A stretch of 64,000 nt of DNA from Proteromonas lacertae (taxonomy: Eukaryota): the NCBI GenBank assembly GCA_002245135.1, contig NGBS01000003.1, positions 248,001 to 312,000 on the forward strand, given 5' to 3'. The position numbers were made by a program, and so were the translations under genes. The notes under the pieces are model-generated. The model worked only from the letters and a program-made list of their open reading frames with translations, was not told where the DNA came from and ran no database searches. Each line of letters opens with the position of its first letter. The stretch's first letter is position 1. Shown here piece by piece: positions 7,533 to 44,700 of this stretch.

Positions 7533-7777
7533 TCAAGATAAATTCTATAAACAAGTATAATAATGATGTGATATATTTACAATAGAAAGTGTTAGATAAT
7601 CCATTAGAAAATAGTGATATATATGGTATAAAAGACAGTGAAAAGAGTTATCATGCTCCTCCTGACTTAAATCCTCAAAGTTTCGGATACAGACCAGGTG
7701 AAGGAGGTCATCACTTTGATGCACTTATATTATCCGTTAAAAAGCCAAAACAGAAGAAATTGCCTGCTGAACCAGAT
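7533..7777 (+). repeat. 245-bp direct repeat, copy 1 (duplicated internal fragment of the gene at 23583-24712, intron included)
   Basis: Matches 23804-24048 with 2 substitutions found; retains intron GTATAATAATGATGTGATATATTTACAATAG. Confidence 0.95.
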
Positions 7778-8784: not shown

Positions 8785-9669
8785 ATGATGATATATTTTA
8801 TTTTACTCATTATACTTCCAAGTTTAATTTTAATAATATATAAGTTTAAATTATATTCAGATTATCATCAATACTTGTTTGTTACTTCATATTTTCAAAT
8901 TGAGAATTATGGAAAACATAGTATGAGACATTATAAAAGATGGATTAATAATTTTTTCAGTTATATAAATGATTCTTTAGTTATATTTACAGATAATAAC
9001 AGATCTTCTAAATCGTTTGTTCCTTCATTTGTAAAAGCCTATAAATATGAATATAAGTCAATATGGGATGTTCCATGTATTAAAAAATACAAAGGAGACT
9101 ATAAAAAACAACATCAAATTGATCCAGTAGGTTATCTTCATAATCCTGATGTTTATGCAATATGGAATTGTAAAATATGCTTTTTGAAAATTGCAACTAA
9201 TGATATACCAAGTAAACTATATATATGGATTGATATTGGAACGTTTAGAGATCCAACTCCATTTAATTCTCTCCCATCCTTAAAAGCTATGAATATTTTC
9301 TACAATTTCAATTCATTGTTCTTTTTTATTGTGATAAATCAAACATTTGAATTGAAGAATAAAACAGTGTTGGAAGAAAAAGATTGGATTGAAGGAGGTA
9401 CTTTCGGTGGTAATAAACAATCAATTCATCGCTATTATAATGAATATTGGAAATGGCATGATTATTTTATGTCTAGAAACAAATTTGTAGGTAAAGATCA
9501 AGTATTATACAACACAATAGCTTTACATGTATTAAATGTAACATTGATAAGAGTTCATGATTTAAATATGTGTATGGGAAATGATTGGTGGAAATATCAA
9601 TGCTTTTATGCTGGAATTAATTTAGAGTTGTTGAAAAGAGCAGATATTAATAATTACTTAGTTAAATAG
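8785..9669 (+). CDS. HtrL/YibB (WlaTC-like) family putative glycosyltransferase, paralog A
   Basis: Intronless; signal anchor; FVTSYF, LVIFTD, IWNCKICF, YIWIDIG, IEGGTFGG, FVGKDQ. Confidence 0.75.
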   Translation: MMIYFILLIILPSLILIIYKFKLYSDYHQYLFVTSYFQIENYGKHSMRHYKRWINNFFSYINDSLVIFTDNNRSSKSFVPSFVKAYKYEYKSIWDVPCIKKYKGDYKKQHQIDPVGYLHNPDVYAIWNCKICFLKIATNDIPSKLYIWIDIGTFRDPTPFNSLPSLKAMNIFYNFNSLFFFIVINQTFELKNKTVLEEKDWIEGGTFGGNKQSIHRYYNEYWKWHDYFMSRNKFVGKDQVLYNTIALHVLNVTLIRVHDLNMCMGNDWWKYQCFYAGINLELLKRADINNYLVK

Positions 9670-17024: not shown

Positions 17025-17939
17025 TCATTTATTAATAATATAATCATTTATATCTACTTCTTTTAATAAATCCAAATTTAAACCACCCAAAAAGCATTGA
17101 AACCTCCACCAATTATTTCCCATACACATATTAAGATTGTGAACTCTTATCAAAGTCACTTTTAGAATATACAATGCTATTGTGTTGTATAGCGTTTGAT
17201 CTTTACCTACAAACTGATTCTTGTTCAAAAAATAATCATGTAATTTCCAAAATTCTTCATAATATCTATTAATTGATTTTTTATTTCCTCCAAAACTAGT
17301 TCCTTCAATCCAATCTCTAACAACTAATTCTGTTTTATTTTTTAGTTTAAATGTTTGATTATAAACTGTAAAAAAGAACATTGATTGAAATGTATATAAG
17401 ATGTTGATTGCTTTTAATGATGGAATTGAATCAAAAGGAGTAGGATCTCTAAATGTTCCTATATCAATCCATATATATAGTTTACTAGCTATATCATTAG
17501 CTGCTGTTTCTAGAAAACATATTTTGCAATTCCATATTGCATAAACATCAGGACTGTGTAGAAAACTCTCTCTGTCAATTTGATGTTGTTTTACATAATC
17601 TTCTTTGTATTTCTTAATACATGGAACATCCCATATTGACTTATATTCATATTTATATGCTTTAACGAACGAAGGAACGAAAGATGTAGAAGATTTGTTA
17701 TTATCTGTAAATATTACCAAAGATTCATTTATAAAACTGAAGAATCTATTTATCCATAACCGATATTCTTGAAGTTTGTGTTTCCCATTATTATCAACAT
17801 GAAAATATGAAGTAACAAACAGATATTGGTAAATATGTTTATTATCTTCAAAATTAAAATACAATAAACCATAATATACTCTATAAAAGATAGAAAATAA
17901 AAGAATAAATGACAGGTAATTAATACTTTTATGAATCAT
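17025..17939 (-). CDS. HtrL/YibB (WlaTC-like) family putative glycosyltransferase, paralog B
   Basis: Close paralog of 8785-9669, sharing SFVPSFVKAYKYEYKSIWDVPCIKKYK and LYIWIDIGTFRDPTPF. Confidence 0.75.
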   Translation of the reverse strand: MIHKSINYLSFILLFSIFYRVYYGLLYFNFEDNKHIYQYLFVTSYFHVDNNGKHKLQEYRLWINRFFSFINESLVIFTDNNKSSTSFVPSFVKAYKYEYKSIWDVPCIKKYKEDYVKQHQIDRESFLHSPDVYAIWNCKICFLETAANDIASKLYIWIDIGTFRDPTPFDSIPSLKAINILYTFQSMFFFTVYNQTFKLKNKTELVVRDWIEGTSFGGNKKSINRYYEEFWKLHDYFLNKNQFVGKDQTLYNTIALYILKVTLIRVHNLNMCMGNNWWRFQCFLGGLNLDLLKEVDINDYIINK

Positions 17940-23582: not shown

Positions 23583-24712
23583 ATGTCTCTTAAAATCTTA
23601 GAGAAAGAAGAAAATGCTTGGAGAAGAATAGAACAGAAATCTTAGTATTGTAATACTTATAATGTGGTTAGTTTTTTTAGGAAAAGATATTACATTCCCA
23701 ATATTGAGTTAGATCATGAACCATATTGTCCAGAAAGAACATTATTGAGTAAAATTGAAATGAATCGATATTATCGAAATCCATTACTACATGAACCAAC
23801 AGCTCAAGATAAATTCTATAAACAAGTATAATAATGATGTGATATATTTACAATAGAAAGTGTTAGATAATCCATTAGAAAATAGTGATATATATGGTAT
23901 AAAAGACAGTGAAAAGAGTTATCATGCTCCTCCTGACTTAAATCCTCAAAGTTTCGGATACAGACCAGGTGAAGGAGGTCATCACTTTGATGCACTTACA
24001 TTATCCGTTAAAAAGCCAAAACAGAAGAAATTACCTGCTGAACCAGATGGATTATTATCAGCTGCAAGATTAAACACATTACTTCACTCCAAAGTAAAAA
24101 CAAATCAATATACAGGTGATCCTCATGAATTAGAATTATTATTACGTGCTCCAAGTGCTAAAGCAATGTCTGATATAACTTGTAAACCACATAAACCAGT
24201 ATAAGAAATATTGTTATTATTATTAGACATATGAAGAATCTTTAGAAGATCCAATAGTTCAAAAAGAATTTGAAGATACAGTAATACCTCCAAAGATAAT
24301 CAAAAATGGAACATTAACTCCAATTGAAAAATCCAAGAAGAAAAACAAGAAAGAGTTGTATTTAAAAGAATTAGAATCTGGTTTTGATAATACAATGTAT
24401 ATCAATAGTTATATATATATATATAGATGTCATACACATCAAATTCGTCAAAATAGTGCTCCAATATTAACTAGACAAAAGCAAATCAATAACAAAGAGA
24501 AATATGCGAAATTGGCGGCTAATAAATTAACCACAACTTTATGCACAGAGAAGATAATGACAGATGATATATTAAAGACAATGTTTCCTGATACTATTGA
24601 TAGATATAAGAGAGAAGATGAGGGCAATCATAGAGAATATTTGTGTAGAAGTGTTGTACATACTACTACTCCAAGACCAATGAGAAAGAAACTGTTTGGA
24701 TCAAAAGAGTAA
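23583..24712 (+). CDS. Hypothetical protein, multi-exon
   Basis: ATG 23583; open frame after removing short introns (23645-23671, 23826-23856 and later ones). Confidence 0.7.
23804..24048 (+). repeat. 245-bp direct repeat, copy 2 (donor copy inside the intact gene)
   Basis: Matches 7533-7777. Confidence 0.95.
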
Positions 24713-35736: not shown

Positions 35737-37760
35737 ATGAATGATAAGAAGCTAATGAGGTATATTATTATGTTTTAATATAATAATAGAAGAAAAATAA
35801 TTGAAGAAGGTATGCCAAGACCAATAACAACTGATGCTCCTACTCCTGAAGAAATTAAAAATTCAGAAGGCTTAGTGAATTTTTTAAAGTATTTATATTG
35901 CATATTGCATATAGAAAAAAAGAATTGTATGAAACCATTGAAGAATTGCAAAATAGAGAAGATGTTTTAGAAAATCTATCTCGTTTGTTGAATGAATTTG
36001 TAACAGGAATTGCAAAAGCAAAAGTATTATGAATTTATAATAATATACTCTATTTAGAATAAACCAGAATATATTCTTGAAAATGCAAGAGGGAAATTAT
36101 TTTCGTTTGGATCGTATAGATTAGGAGTACAAGCTCCAGGTGCAGATATCGATTTACTATGTGCGACTCCAAATTATGTTAAAAGAGAAGATTTTTTCAA
36201 TATATTTACGTTTCTATTAAAGAGTGATAAAGGGACTGAAGAGATTAATCCAGTTGAAGGAGCTTATGTTCCTTGTATTAAAATAAAATATGAAGGTGTA
36301 GAATGTGATTTACTGTTTGCAGCATTACCATTTGAAATTATTGAAACAGATTTAAGTGTATTAGATGAAAATATTCTTAATAATGCTGATGAAGCAGTAA
36401 TTAGAAGTTTAAATGGATGTAGAACAACTGATATGATTTTAGAATTAGTGACAGATCCTGCAGAATATAAAGTAGCATTAAAATTTATAAAGAAATGGGC
36501 TGAAGAGAGAGGTGTATATTCAAATAAAATGGGTTATTTTGGAGGTGTTAATTTAGCTATTTTGATGTGTTATATATATGAATTATATCCAAATGCATGT
36601 TCATTGTATTATTAATATTGATATTTACTATTTTAGTATATTATTAAAAAAATTCTTTTATGTTTATCAACAATATAAATATGAAAAACCAATTCAATTA
36701 AGAACTCATAAAAAGAATAACACAGATATGGATAAATATGTATATCTAATTATCATTTTTTCCTATATTTAATAGGTTTGGGATCCTACTGTTAATAGGA
36801 GAGATCAAGGTCATAAAATGATATTGCTAACTCCAGCATATCCAGGACAAAATTCTACTCCAAGTGTAAATGAATATTCACTAAAAGTACTAGTTGATGA
36901 ATTTGCTAGAGGATATAATATAATAAAAGAGATTGAAAAAGGAGAACCTGTATATTAGGAATATATCATTTTCGTATAGAATTGGGATAAATTATTAGAA
37001 CCATCAGATGTCTTTTATAAATATTATGATTATTTGGCTATTAAATTGTCAGCTACTGAAGAACATATGCTTCAATGGCTAGGTTATTGTGAATCAAAAC
37101 TTCGTAAATTGGTTGAATTATTAGGTGAAACAAGTTTATTTGAAAAAATACATTTACATCCAGCTGAATATCATAATCCCAAAATATTGTATTATGAAGA
37201 TAAAGACAAAGATATCAACATTCCATTGTTAAACTCTGAATTTTTCATTGGTTTAAAATTAAAAAGTGGAGAAGAAAATATAGACATTGCAATTCCAATT
37301 GAGAAATTTTACAGTTTATATATCAACAGTTTTAGAAATAAAACACAAGATATGATAATAGAAGTGGAGTATTATGAATCTAAAAATTTACCATCATTTT
37401 TGGAATTGGATTTTGATAAAGTAAATATAAGAAAAAGTGTAAAGAAAGATACTTCTCATAAAAGTAGAGATAGTATTAACACAATCATTCCGATATAAAA
37501 CTAGAAATGAAATTTTTGGAAAAAAGAGTGATGTAAATCAAGAAGAAATTAAATCAGATAGTATTAAGTTAGTTGAAGGTGATAAAGAAAATTCAGATAG
37601 TAAACCTGTTTCTCAGACAAAAATAACACCAATATTTAAGAATGAAATTGATGGTGAAAATAGAAAAGATCTTACAGCATCATCTGTTAAAAGAAAGTCA
37701 ATAAGTCAAATGAAGAAAAAGAAAAAAGATGACGTATGGAAGAAAATGAAGAGTGAATAA
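35737..37760 (+). CDS. PAP: Canonical poly(A) polymerase, multi-exon
   Basis: FGSYRLGVQAPGADIDLLC, RSLNGCRTTD, WAEERGVYSNKMGYFGGV, TPAYPGQNST; last exon junction uncertain. Confidence 0.95.
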
Positions 37761-37805
37761 GTAAAAATTATAACTATAGTTTGTATTTTATTTGTTTTAT
37801 TTATA

Positions 37806-39319
37806 AAACACCAAATAAACAATATCAATAAATATTATGTTAAACAAATTATCATATAATATTTAAAACACTTTATTTATATACTCTCAAATGATTTCAA
37901 ATGACTTTCATATTCTTTCTTCTTATTAAAACATTTTAAACAGTATTTACAGATTCGAGTAGTTTTCTTTATATTTAAATCAACATTGTATAAATTCATT
38001 ATTGGTTTTAAGTATTCGAGATAATAATAACGAATTATTCGTTTTTCACTTCGATGAAACAACAAATTGATTATTTCTATTTGTGGTTTATGATTCGTAT
38101 ATTGAGTTGTTCTTAATATTTCAATCTTCTTTTCATCATACATATAGAATATGTTTATTCCTATATTGTTATATTTCTCGAAAGTTCTTAAACCAATTTC
38201 ATCACATGGATCTACTGGATATTTTAATTCATATTTTATCTTATCTTTATGTTGTAATAGATTTTCTATTCGATAGTTTTCTAAATAGTTTCGCTCCTTT
38301 GAATAATGGAATAGAATTGAATATAAGAAACTCTTGTTATCATTACATGGAATTTTATCAGTGTAAACAAGTACATCTTTTGAAGATATTTGGTCGAATT
38401 GTATACTTACTTTCATAAAAACCATTATTATTATTGTGTAATCCTTGTTCATGTCGGATATCGGAATATATTGGAATAACCACTTGAAACAATTGGAATT
38501 GACTCGATTCTACCTTTGAAATTACAGTTATCAAATATCATCTTTGCATTACATTCAGATGATGAATTTAGAAGAAATTCATTACAAAAACTATTGGATA
38601 TTGCAAAATTCTTATTAGAAGCACTTGATTCATAATCACACTCAGTTTTTATCATTAATGGAGATTTGCTTGTTGAATCTGATATAATATCATTACCTGA
38701 ATATGGAACATCTGGAACATATTCATTATAATCACATATATCTGGAGAATAAGAATCTACTTTTTCACAGATGAATTCTTTCCAACTATTGTATGTTGAT
38801 TTTTCATCTTCATAACACATTTTTTTGTTTGGTACACCATATACTTCGCGATCTACTTCTGGATTTTCGACATTATATAAATCTAGATAATATGATCTTC
38901 TTTTGTTGATATTCAGTCTATCCAGTTCATTGTAAATCGAATTATCATCGTTATCTAAGGTTCATACACTCCTCATTACTCATTATTGTTTTGCTTTTAA
39001 ACCCAAAAGAAAAAATCAAATGAAAATCAAATATATATCAAACCATGTTAATTCTTTTTGAAAACAGCCAATCAAATTCCATCAGAAACTCTATTTCATT
39101 GGTTTATATATTGTAATGCCTCACTTGTGAGAAGGCTAGATTATCGTTTTGGTATAACCGCCTTGATGTATATATGTATGTATAGGTATTTGTGGATGTT
39201 CAGTAATCACATGTGAGGCTTAAACTATATCTAGAAGATTAAAGAATTATTCGTTTTATTCTTCTATCATCCTTCACTCATTATTATCCCATTCATCCTT
39301 CATTCAATCCTTATTCCTT
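37806..39319 (-). repeat. Left arm of large inverted repeat
   Basis: Reverse complement of 39590-41100. Confidence 0.97.
37877..38983 (-). pseudogene. Frameshifted copy of the 39926-41029 ORF
   Basis: Three +1 insertions relative to the right copy (~38360, ~38457, ~38961) break the frame. Confidence 0.75.
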
Positions 39320-39589
39320 AATAATATCATCATCCTCATTTATTACAGTTTTTTCATCCTTCAAAAAGTCACTCAGTCAAAAGTAGGATGAAAATTGATG
39401 ATAGAGGATAATTTCCTCAAATAGTAGAAAAAGGATTATAAAAAGAGGATTTTTAGTTAAGTCTTCTTTTTATAATCCTATTCTCTATATGATCCATCTG
39501 TGAGGAATATTATCCCTTTTTTTCAATCCTCCTAATAATCCTCTATTATCACTTTTTATGAGTTTGTAGGTGTGTAAAATCCTTCTGTG

Positions 39590-41100
39590 AAGGAATGAGG
39601 ATTGAATGAAGGATGAATGGGATAATAATGAGTGAAGGATGATAGAAGAATAAAACGAATAATTCTTTAATCTTCTAGATATAGTTTAAGCCTCACATGT
39701 GATTACTGAACATCCACAAATACCTATACATACATATATACATCAAGGCGGTTATACCAAAACGATAATCTAGCCTTCTCACAAGTGAGGCATTACAATA
39801 TATAAACCAATGAAATAGAGTTTCTGATGGAATTTGATTGGCTGTTTTCAAAAAGAATTAACATGGTTTGATATATATTTGATTTTCATTTGATTTTTTC
39901 TTTTGGGTTTAAAAGCAAAACAATAATGAGTAATGAGGAGTGTATGACCTTAGATAACGATGATAATTCGATTTACGATGAACTGGATAGACTGAATATC
40001 AACAAAAGAAGATCATATTATCTAGATTTATATAATGTCGAAAATCCAGAAGTAGATCGCGAAGTATATGGTATACCAAACAAAAGAATGTGTTATGAAG
40101 ATGAAAAATCAACATACAATAGTTGGAAAGAATTCATCTGTGAAAAAGTAGATTCTTATTCTCCAGATATATGTGATTATAATGAATATGTTCCAGATAT
40201 TCCATATTCAGGTAATGATATTATATCAGATTCAACAAGCAAATCTCCATTAATGATAAAAACTGAGTGTGATTATGAATCCAGTGCTTCTAATAAGAAT
40301 TTTGCAATATCCAATAGTTTTTGTAATGAATTTCTTCTAAATTCATCATCTGAATGTAATGCAAAGATGATATTTGATAACTGTAATTTCAAAGGTAGAA
40401 TCGAGTCAATTCCAATTGTTTCAAGTGGTTATTCCAATATATTCCGATATCGACATGAACAAGGATTACACAATAATAATAATGGTTTTTATGAAAGTAA
40501 GTATACAATTCGACCAAATATCTTCAAAAGATGTACTTGTTTACACGATAAAATTCCATGTAATGATAACAAGAGTTTCTTATATTCAATTCTATTCCAT
40601 TATTCAAAGGAGCGAAACTATTTAGAAAACTATCGAATAGAAAATCTATTACAACATAAAGATAAGATAAAATATGAATTAAAATATCCAGTAGATCCAT
40701 GTGATGAAATTGGTTTAAGAACTTTCGAGAAATATAACAATATAGGAATAAACATATTCTATATGTATGATGAAAAGAAGATTGAAATATTAAGAACAAC
40801 TCAATATACGAATCATAAACCACAAATAGAAATAATCAATTTGTTGTTTCATCGAAGTGAAAAACGAATAATTCGTTATTATTATCTCGAATACTTAAAA
40901 CCAATAATGAATTTATACAATGTTGATTTAAATATAAAGAAAACTACTCGAATCTGTAAATACTGTTTAAAATGTTTTAATAAGAAGAAAGAGTATGAAA
41001 GTCATTTGAAATCATTTGAGAGTATATAAATAAAGTGTTTTAAATATTATATGATAATTTGTTTAACATAATATTTATTGATATTGTTTATTTGGTGTTT
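39590..41100 (+). repeat. Right arm of large inverted repeat
   Basis: Reverse complement of 37806-39319. Confidence 0.97.
39926..41029 (+). CDS. Intronless protein resembling the N-terminal (pre-exonuclease) region of Polinton/Maverick-type pPolB, ending in a CxxC..H zinc finger
   Basis: NDNKSFLYSIL, LKYPV...FEKYNNIGINIF, INLLF, YYYLEYL, ICKYCLKCF...ESH; no polymerase catalytic motifs. Confidence 0.65.
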   Translation: MSNEECMTLDNDDNSIYDELDRLNINKRRSYYLDLYNVENPEVDREVYGIPNKRMCYEDEKSTYNSWKEFICEKVDSYSPDICDYNEYVPDIPYSGNDIISDSTSKSPLMIKTECDYESSASNKNFAISNSFCNEFLLNSSSECNAKMIFDNCNFKGRIESIPIVSSGYSNIFRYRHEQGLHNNNNGFYESKYTIRPNIFKRCTCLHDKIPCNDNKSFLYSILFHYSKERNYLENYRIENLLQHKDKIKYELKYPVDPCDEIGLRTFEKYNNIGINIFYMYDEKKIEILRTTQYTNHKPQIEIINLLFHRSEKRIIRYYYLEYLKPIMNLYNVDLNIKKTTRICKYCLKCFNKKKEYESHLKSFESI

Positions 41101-41248
41101 AAAATAGAAATGAAAATATTGAAACGATTATATTATCAGAATAAATATGTAATATAGTCGTTTCATTTTTTGATTTTTCAAAATTCTCAATTAACAGAGT
41201 ATAAAACTAATATGAGATTAAAACATATAAAATCAACATTTATAAATA

Positions 41249-41751
41249 TTATATATTTTCTCCTTTTTTCTTCATAAATCCAACATTTCTTAATTTATAT
41301 AGACGATAAGCATCAAGCATTGTTTCAATACTCTTAATATGCTCTGGGAAATATCTTTTGTCATTGCGAGATATATTCTTAAATGGTCGAAATCTATTGA
41401 ATTATAGAGACATTATACTTCTTATTCCATGCATGAGCAGCTCGATGATCTTTCGGTAAGTCTATTACATGTCTATGCTTCTTAGCCAACTTCAATTTAT
41501 GATGAACTGTTCTTTTTGAGCAAATGAGTAACAGATCACTGAAAAACACTCTTGGTGGATCATTATCATGCTTATATCTATAAACAATAACACATAACAA
41601 TACATAGTTAGCTTCATTTCTATTATTTCATCCCAAATATTCTGTTTCTTTTTAGATATTCCTAATGGAGGAGGTAAAGCATGAAAGAAAGCAGGTAAAC
41701 TTGTATAAGGGATAAAACACAAACCATTTGGATCAAAACCTATAACAAATA

Positions 41752-41789
<38 letters not shown>

Positions 41790-44700
41790 TCCAAACTCTA
41801 ATAAACTCTTCAAAATAATGTTGTGGTAATTCAGGCCTTCTAGTAAGACTATCAAAACTATCTAAAACAACACCAATGAACAAATTAATCAATATGAAAT
41901 TAATGATTATCATAAATGAATAGAAATAAGGATAAGCAAAGTTATTACCACATCCAGTAAATGGAATACAATTGGTTGTATTAAAATCATGAATGCAGTA
42001 ACTACTATTGTAAGTTGGATTTACTCTACAGTTATCTTGATCTAAACAATCATACATTATTTGATTCCAATTCTCACCTGTCAAACACCGAATTAATGTT
42101 AAAAAAGCTGAGAAAAAATCTCTAAAATTCACTCTATCATTCAATATTACACCATCTTTTACTTTAGCAAACAATTGAACTCCAATTATGGAATAAATTA
42201 AGAACATTAATGCTAATATAGCTGATATATTTCCTATTGCAGGTAATGTCAAGAGTAAAGTATTGAACAACATTCTGAGTGATGTAGCAAAATGTAATAA
42301 TCGTAAGATTCTACCTATTCTAAAAGCTCTAACAACTAATAATATTCCATAATGTTGATGATAAATATCCATTAAGATATAAGCCAACATCAGCACCAAT
42401 TGTGACAATAAAATCAAATACATTCCAACTCTCTCTAAAATACTGTTTTAATCCCAAGCCAAACATTTTTATCAACATTTCTATTGTAAATATCCATGCT
42501 AATGTTTCACTTATATAATCCAATGTTCTAGAATAAGCTAATGGAGCTGAGTAATAATAAGCACCCATTATGATTGTATTAATCAATATTAATATTGTTA
42601 TAAATATATCAAAACCTTCTTTTCTTACTAAGTCAAAACACATTTTTCTCCATTTATCTAAACACAACTATAAAACATCAATAAATATACTTTGAGGATG
42701 AATTAAAGGTCTATGTATTTTCAATGATAATAAAGTCTCTTTTATTGCAACCCACTCTCTTTGTTCAGAAGTGAGAAACATGTTGGCTTTTGTATTATTC
42801 TTACGAAATTCTGTAAACTTGTCAATTACAACTCCAACGAACAAATTGATCAAGAAGAAAGATCCAAGAAATATGAATATAACAAAATAGATACACCATG
42901 CTAAACTATTATCTTTAATAGGTTGCATTTCAATTCTATAAGATTAAAATAACAACTAAATATATACCCATTATTGTCTGTAGCAATATGCATTATTTTC
43001 AACCATCCTTCTCTTGAAACAAGTTGTAATAAAGTTGAAACACTTTGAAATATATTATTAAAATTCTGTGGGCAATGATAACCAGATTTCCATTGACATT
43101 TCATCCATAAACAAACATTTTTTGATGTTTCTCCACTATATTCTCCACTAAACCAACTCTTTTGTAATGCATTGAGTTTATCATATGCTATTGGATAAGT
43201 AATCAAATTAAATTGATCTGTAGTAATTGTATTTGGACAAATACAACCATAATTCAAACCTTTGAAGTAATACAGAGCAAATAAACCAAATATAATGAAA
43301 AATAAAAATGAAATTAAAGCGACATTTATCAAACCAGGTATTGACGATACTAATACATGAACTGCTCTTTTCAATGCTATTATAAAAAGTGATATAAAAT
43401 GAATAAAAAATACTTTTGAATTTGCTAATCATTGATAATGGTCTTAATGCACTCAAAGCATGTAATGATTTCATCGCTGTTAAATGTTCACCAATATCAA
43501 TAGGAGATAACACTAAAAAGATAATTATTACTACAAATAACTCTAATATATTCCAACCATTGTGTAGAAATGCACCATGAGTGAATAACACTCCCATTCT
43601 AATCAAATTATATAAGAAATATATATATCATACGATATTGTTTGTAAAAGTATCTCGACAGTAAAGAATATATTCACTATTAATTCACCATAATGAATAA
43701 CTTCATAGATTGTACTATGCGGAATGTGTAGTGGATTATCAATAGCTAATAGAGTTGAAGCAACTACAATCATAAACACGTTGAAATATTCCCAATATTT
43801 ATTACAAATTAACTTTGTTATAGCGATTCTGATTCTGTTGCTTGGACTGAATATAAACCATGAATAACCATATAATAATGAATATTCTTCTTCTGATTCT
43901 TCAGAATCTATACTGGCAAATGTCATTGGCTCTAAATGACTCTATTATGATATAAATATAACAACATGTATAATACAGCAATAGTGTATGATTCAAATCT
44001 TTTATGCCTTCTTTTAGTAGGTGTATAATTGTTATTTGAATAATCAGAATGATGAAAATGAGGTGGAGTGATAATAGTAAAGAATTCTTCATCATTTGTA
44101 TCAACCTTCCTATGTGATGTAGGTTCAATAACTGGTTCTAAATCTTCTGGAATTGGTTCTTCATCTCTCAACTCAAAGTCAACATCAGTTGTATTAATTG
44201 TTGGTGGATGTGCTTTTAATGGTAAGATAGTTGGATTAAATGTAGTTAATTCAACTTCTCTTGGACTTGTTGGCATTGCATTTTTGGTTTTCTTCCTTCC
44301 CAAACTTTGATGAATTTCTGAATAAAACGCAGATACTGTTCTTGATCTTGTTGTGTAAGAATGTGTATCAGATTGACTAGAAACAGATCCACTATCAACT
44401 TCTGGTGTTGATTCTGAATAATTATCTTCCAATAGTTCAATTTTCCTTAAATACTTTTTGATTTTATTCCATATATGTCTACATATAAATTAAGAAATAA
44501 ATATACAATAAATAAACATGAGTTCTAGTTGGTGGTGGAAAATGAATCAATTTCTTATGTCTAAAATTTCCAATCAAAATTGCTAAGAACAAATTCAATA
44601 TAATCATATTACCAAACAATATCAAATTCAATCCATAAACAGTACCCCAAAAGTCCTCTTGTCCTGATTTGATCATATCAAAATAATATGAAATCCATCA

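Follow-up and report, generated by a model that had tools for sequence, protein, structure and literature searches.

A palindrome with an intact and a broken copy of a predicted inactive vOTU–zinc-finger gene in Proteromonas lacertae, probably produced by an ordinary duplication

The stretch of DNA analysed (the window; 64,000 nt of Proteromonas lacertae contig NGBS01000003.1) is AT-rich, with introns of about 30–38 nt (by eye) and short intergenic gaps. Self-alignment showed one gene to be duplicated in inverted orientation over 3.3 kb, with a left arm (37806–39319, minus strand) and a right arm (39590–41100, plus strand); this palindromic structure is real in the assembly. Global alignment of the right arm with the reverse-complemented left arm gave 99.3% identity, with 10 mismatched or gapped columns out of 1514. 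Seven were substitutions, six of them A/G on the sense strand. In each arm the ATG is preceded by 336 bp of upstream sequence, and the arm extends 71 bp beyond the stop codon of the coding region. The palindrome is flanked by two convergent host genes: one for a poly(A) polymerase on the plus strand (35739–37760; Pfam PAP_RNA-bind and translation, limits set by eye), the stop codon of which is 45 bp from the left arm, and one for an ion channel on the minus strand (3′ exons at 41249–42423; Pfam Ion_trans and translation, by eye), whose stop codon, as judged by eye, is separated from the right arm by about 148 bp. An earlier note on this DNA had described arms of about 1.5 kb and about 99% identity, each with a whole ORF and an upstream region and ending some 70 bp past the stop, in a short gap between convergent host genes and with no clear target-site duplication. 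This description was borne out except in one respect, since only the right arm contains an open ORF, the left copy having three frameshifts.

In silico excision of the palindrome left about 193 bp between the convergent stop codons, an ordinary gap (by eye); this fits duplication in place and the insertion of an entire unit equally well. Comparison of the two junctions gave a direct match of at most 5 bp (TAAAA), a length reached by 19% of 5000 random AT-rich junction pairs. A blastn search found no further copy of the palindrome in the 64-kb window. The palindrome has a single ORF, genes for an integrase, an ATPase, a capsid or a full polymerase being absent from it, and neither a mobility gene nor element ends were found there. 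It does have long terminal inverted repeats, as in foldback/TIR elements, namely the 1.5-kb arms. Polinton or PLV genes were not recognised among the other ORFs of the window (by eye; 23 ORFs compared with Pfam). Two small structures lie close by. An imperfect hairpin spans the left junction (37790–37816) and is perhaps merely two facing TGTTT-type 3′ motifs. An 18-bp stem-loop (41120–41165), 20 bp beyond the right arm and outside the palindrome, falls in the gap on the 3′ side of the channel gene.

The intact gene (39926–41029, plus strand) is intron-less and codes for 367 aa. The left copy (37877–38983, minus strand) was delimited by aligning the arms, and contains single-base insertions at 38962, 38457 and 38360 (codons 8, 176 and 208). 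Six further coding differences, four of them non-synonymous and two synonymous, distinguish the two copies. At each of the four amino-acid differences the residue of the right copy was the commonest among 21 relatives (16, 15, 21 and 21 of 21), and the residue of the left copy was found in none of the 21. All seven differences that could be polarised, the three frameshifts included, therefore fall on the left arm (two-sided chance 0.016, by hand arithmetic). This pattern fits a functional right copy with a decaying duplicate, and also fits uncorrected read errors on one arm, palindromes being reported to degrade nanopore accuracy (available text of PMC7229812).

Two CCAAT-box-like motifs in opposite orientation were found upstream of the intact ORF (39805–39843; motif scan), mirrored in the left arm at 39066 and 39097. 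They would be putative promoter elements. The 3′ region of the intact gene (41030–41100, plus strand) contains TGTTT motifs of the host type, and the right arm terminates at the last of them. Both arms stop exactly at this 3′ signal, which is neater than expected for a random break. Among 12 core host genes, 10 had a TGTTT motif in the 80 nt that follow the stop; the motif was present in none of the eight genes of a 16-kb island located elsewhere in the window, and in 18% of background windows. It resembles a downstream element described in Blastocystis (in the available text of PMC12129017). The GC3 value of the intact ORF (0.196) is within the range of six other ORFs of the window (0.156–0.236).

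The arms are separated by a 270-bp centre (39320–39589), an imperfect palindrome rich in ATCC/GGAT. Its folding energy was −37.1 kcal/mol, compared with −18.9 ± 3.4 for 100 shuffled sequences, and the two strongest-folding of 473 windows overlap it. A stem scan located a core hairpin at 39432–39479, with a 21-bp stem containing two mismatches and a 6-nt loop; AT microsatellites aside, it is the longest such stem in the window. The axis of this inner palindrome (about 39455) lies no more than about 2 bp from the axis of the arms. From the axis outwards, self-identity was high in the core, about 70% over the next 40 bp and nil over about 60 bp, then rose abruptly to the 99% of the arms; the innermost 21 bp thus match better than the following 100 bp. 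The density of ATCC/GGAT peaks at the centre, with 17 per 400 bp against a window mean of 2.8. The centre was similar to neither flank when compared with both. Rfam gave four weak matches, every one far under the gathering score, and the core hairpin had no exact match in viral contigs.

The predicted protein starts with an acidic N-terminus (residues 1–155), modelled with low confidence, followed by a region with pLDDT values mostly of 70–93 (residues 161–360). In a structure search of 48,161 PDB chains, ranks 1–10 were all OTU domains with modest Z values (5.3–6.3), the best being OTUD1 (Z 6.3, rmsd 3.7, 112 aligned), and the structural matches of the C-terminus were zinc fingers. Foldseek against the PDB gave nothing at E ≤ 0.001, although the entries listed are OTU domains. 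The top fold matches among viral models were an adintovirus protein (E 1.5e-5) and a MELD-virus polymerase (E 4.4e-4). With hhalign, the family profile matched pPolB fragments at 97% (E 8.4e-11, 156 columns), and a search with this profile also picked up the pPolB of a PLV-like contig; identity to four pPolB sequences is about 20–28%. A sequence search of the PDB gave a best E of 0.27, Pfam returned nothing for the protein beyond sub-threshold zinc-finger matches, and the Atlas matches were unnamed clusters, with Endonuclease_7 and DNA_pol_B_2 clusters just as leads (<0.9). The profile and fold matches suggest that the protein derives from the vOTU and zinc-finger region of a Polinton or PLV pPolB, in agreement with the earlier description of the gene as virus-like.

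The pPolB of Polintons, adintoviruses and PLVs shares with this protein an OTU fold followed by a zinc finger. However, the protein studied here stands alone and, according to the alignment, has Ser217 in place of the catalytic Cys and Arg317 in place of the catalytic His; its OTU domain is therefore predicted to be dead. The zinc finger (CxxC-x12-H, residues 344–360) has no obvious fourth ligand. The ORF stops seven codons past the zinc-finger His, with exonuclease and palm domains absent and no terminal-protein domain seen. A longer (fused) form was not found among 5692 candidates, which is a weak test. The vOTU protease of Polinton pPolB is thought to release the terminal protein, and is described as inactivated in adenovirids and bidnavirids (10.1101/2024.03.18.585575; PMC8502044; available portions of both). 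As portrayed there, those inactive vOTUs are parts of polymerases, whereas here the domain belongs to a separate protein.

Eleven clusters of stand-alone relatives, 24–64% identical, were identified, all in Logan assemblies. A Ser occupies the catalytic Cys position in all 12 stand-alone rows of the alignment, the catalytic His is retained in two (P0001 and P0002), and every row terminates 3–16 residues past the zinc-finger His. Phylogenetic analysis separated these 12 rows from the four pPolB rows with support 100/99 in a first tree and 99/99 in a second; both trees have long branches, and in the second tree row P0002, taken from a wrong region, is to be disregarded. Judged by their sequences, the 11 clusters appear to be conserved full-length orthologues in divergent lineages. 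No prior description of a stand-alone family of dead vOTU–zinc-finger proteins was found in the open literature searched. Because of the depth of the family, the GC3 value and the TGTTT motif, the gene can be considered long established and host-like rather than a newly truncated viral gene. A recent truncation of a Polinton was also rejected as a candidate, the end point and the Ser being common to the deep group.

Of the 27 members of one cluster, the 15 that were listed were 97–99.7% identical, and four gametes were observed at 12 of 36 site pairs, variation of the kind that recombining alleles would show. The 54 listed relatives are all found on contigs no longer than 5.4 kb, many of them of 1.4–2.4 kb, near the length of one arm. 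Such short contigs are expected alike for repeats, small replicons, transcripts and low coverage. The four most-seen variants of one cluster (P0024 and P0039–P0041; 2–24 contigs each) have longest contigs of 3.95–4.33 kb, a ceiling suggestive of a unit bounded by repeats or of a small replicon. Scans for the DNA context of the relatives revealed no family member among metagenome contigs, viral contigs (IMG/VR), prokaryote genomes and plasmids. The two loci returned, L001 and L002, encode pPolB-type proteins. L001 (1–9785) is a contig of Polinton-like-virus type, with a packaging-ATPase-like ORF and capsid-like ORFs (by eye), and the vOTU of its pPolB retains the Cys and the His. L002 (193–1638) contains a pPolB-type gene that appears to be interrupted by a stop, which separates its terminal-protein-like part from its vOTU part.

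How the palindrome arose can be viewed in several ways. The anatomy of the locus fits a head-to-head junction, as the earlier note had envisaged in proposing a foldback element or an integrated head-to-head intermediate, but no sign of mobility was seen. Foldback and MITE-like non-autonomous DNA transposons have long inverted arms, lack a transposase and contain modular repeats. Compared with this general description, the arms here consist of a whole gene with its putative promoter and 3′ signal, and neither a convincing target-site duplication nor a family of copies was seen. A mobile palindromic element primed by its hairpin, or a satellite of a Polinton-like virus or virophage, with the hairpin as origin or turnaround end, would have the dead vOTU–zinc-finger gene as sole cargo, and its opened dimer would have been integrated in the convergent gap via helper enzymes. 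We consider this unlikely. It would account for the two-tier symmetry of near-identical arms around an imperfect hairpin, the window's densest ATCC/GGAT cluster, the normal size of the gap once the palindrome is removed, the intron-less gene of viral origin, and the confinement of the relatives to short contigs, including the ceiling of the four most-seen variants. The endogenous virophages and PLVs of Halocafeteria seosinensis offer a parallel, a Polinton-type gene in a protist with a palindrome of about 50 nt beside inverted repeats; their terminal palindromes (52 nt in one subtype) are proposed to be replication primers (10.64898/2026.07.28.741278, available text). Those palindromes, however, are described there as lying beside a target-site duplication at the ends of elements that measure about 24 kb and carry genes for a capsid and an integrase, whereas the palindrome here is central and without such genes. 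A mobile origin also sits poorly with the lack of a convincing target-site duplication and of a second copy in the window, the allele-like variation of the relatives, the IMG/VR scans (the sole match being a full pPolB), the lack of an exact match for the core hairpin in viral contigs, and the location of all polarisable differences on one arm. Distinctly unlikely is the more elaborate proposal of a one-gene, hairpin-primed selfish element of gut protists, a new kind of satellite of Polinton-like viruses, in which the protein would hijack or block the protein-primed polymerase of the helper and the opened dimer would integrate into host chromosomes.

An artefact is improbable; here the palindrome would be a chimera formed by fold-back or during amplification, or one segment that the assembler had joined in both orientations, and the left-arm differences would be uncorrected read errors. 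The reduced nanopore accuracy in long palindromes and the confinement of the three single-base insertions to the left arm would suit it, and the central hairpin could seed fold-back in vitro; but the flanks are two different unique host genes, so two switches would be required, the 270-bp centre is an imperfect mirror unlike either flank, and the arms differ by seven substitutions. The poorest chance is given to an old maintained palindrome, a long head-to-head pair whose arms were kept alike by gene conversion while the centre drifted. The common axis of the inner palindrome and the arms, and the many contigs of relatives near the length of one arm, are in line with it. The abrupt drop in identity at the arm edges and the best-matching core are, however, the opposite of what gradual decay would leave, and the left copy is broken.

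We give about an even chance to the view that a virus-derived gene, domesticated by the host, was duplicated once by fold-back and that its extra copy is decaying. The old, conserved stand-alone group, the host-like composition and the seven differences on the left arm are the reasons for preferring it. The earlier note had stated that its reading would be overturned if a conserved host gene had undergone a single inverted duplication, and the polarity of the differences and the conserved host-like family favour that case. An ancestor of these protists would have retained the polymerase fragment as a gene of its own. Its product is predicted to be a non-catalytic binder, and we infer that its partner would most likely be ubiquitin or a viral replication protein (the polymerase or terminal protein); action as a decoy is a tentative suggestion. 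The hairpin upstream of the gene, the strongest in the window and co-axial with the arms, is the candidate seed. There, single-stranded DNA could have folded back, priming synthesis through the promoter, the ORF and the 3′ signal, and a second template switch or end-joining could have fixed the copy, in place or at the present site from elsewhere. The redundant left copy would then decay, the right one remaining under selection. A retrocopy made via self-primed cDNA was rejected, since the arms lack a poly(A) tail and include 336 bp of promoter-like sequence.

According to the available text of the sources, single-stranded DNA in yeast is driven to fold back by divergent inverted repeats (PMC10164571), and ODIRA junctions are characterised by short interrupted repeats (PMC10766186). 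The inverted duplications reported there resemble the present one in their near-identical arms and in a spacer with an imperfect inverted repeat; the small hairpin across the left junction is a further point of resemblance. However, a standard ODIRA event yields a triplication (PMC10766186), whereas here there are two copies, with no inverted triplication, confined to one transcription unit; by analogy, this difference in outcome would count against the one-off duplication. So does the ending of the arms exactly at the 3′ signal, neater than a random break would leave. A further objection is that errors left over from sequencing could account for the differences on the left arm.

The palindrome thus probably originated by duplication, an ordinary event by itself, and the gene family is of more importance. 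If the interpretation is correct, a replication domain of a DNA virus was domesticated in protists and kept across lineages 24–64% apart; the family would then qualify as a candidate for dominant-negative defence against Polinton-like viruses, and would offer a handle on the binding partners of inactive vOTU domains. Were the palindrome mobile, it would represent a new class of minimal virus satellite.

Other features of the window were also recorded. One gene contains a TPH domain (Pfam), a domain with a ciliary role. Blastocystis is reported to have lost nearly all cilia genes (PMC10690189, available text), so the TPH gene suggests a flagellated relative of it as the host. The 16-kb island mentioned above is flanked by a 245-bp direct repeat (7533–7777 and 23804–24048; 99% identical), the right copy of which lies inside a host ORF. 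Its nearly intron-less genes are of glycan-modifying types (GT61, GT92, FkbM and UDPGP; Pfam) and lack the TGTTT 3′ motif of the host. The island looks like a recent insertion or rearrangement. Within it, an older inverted pair (8869–9656 and 17041–17828; 80% identical) corresponds to paralogous genes.
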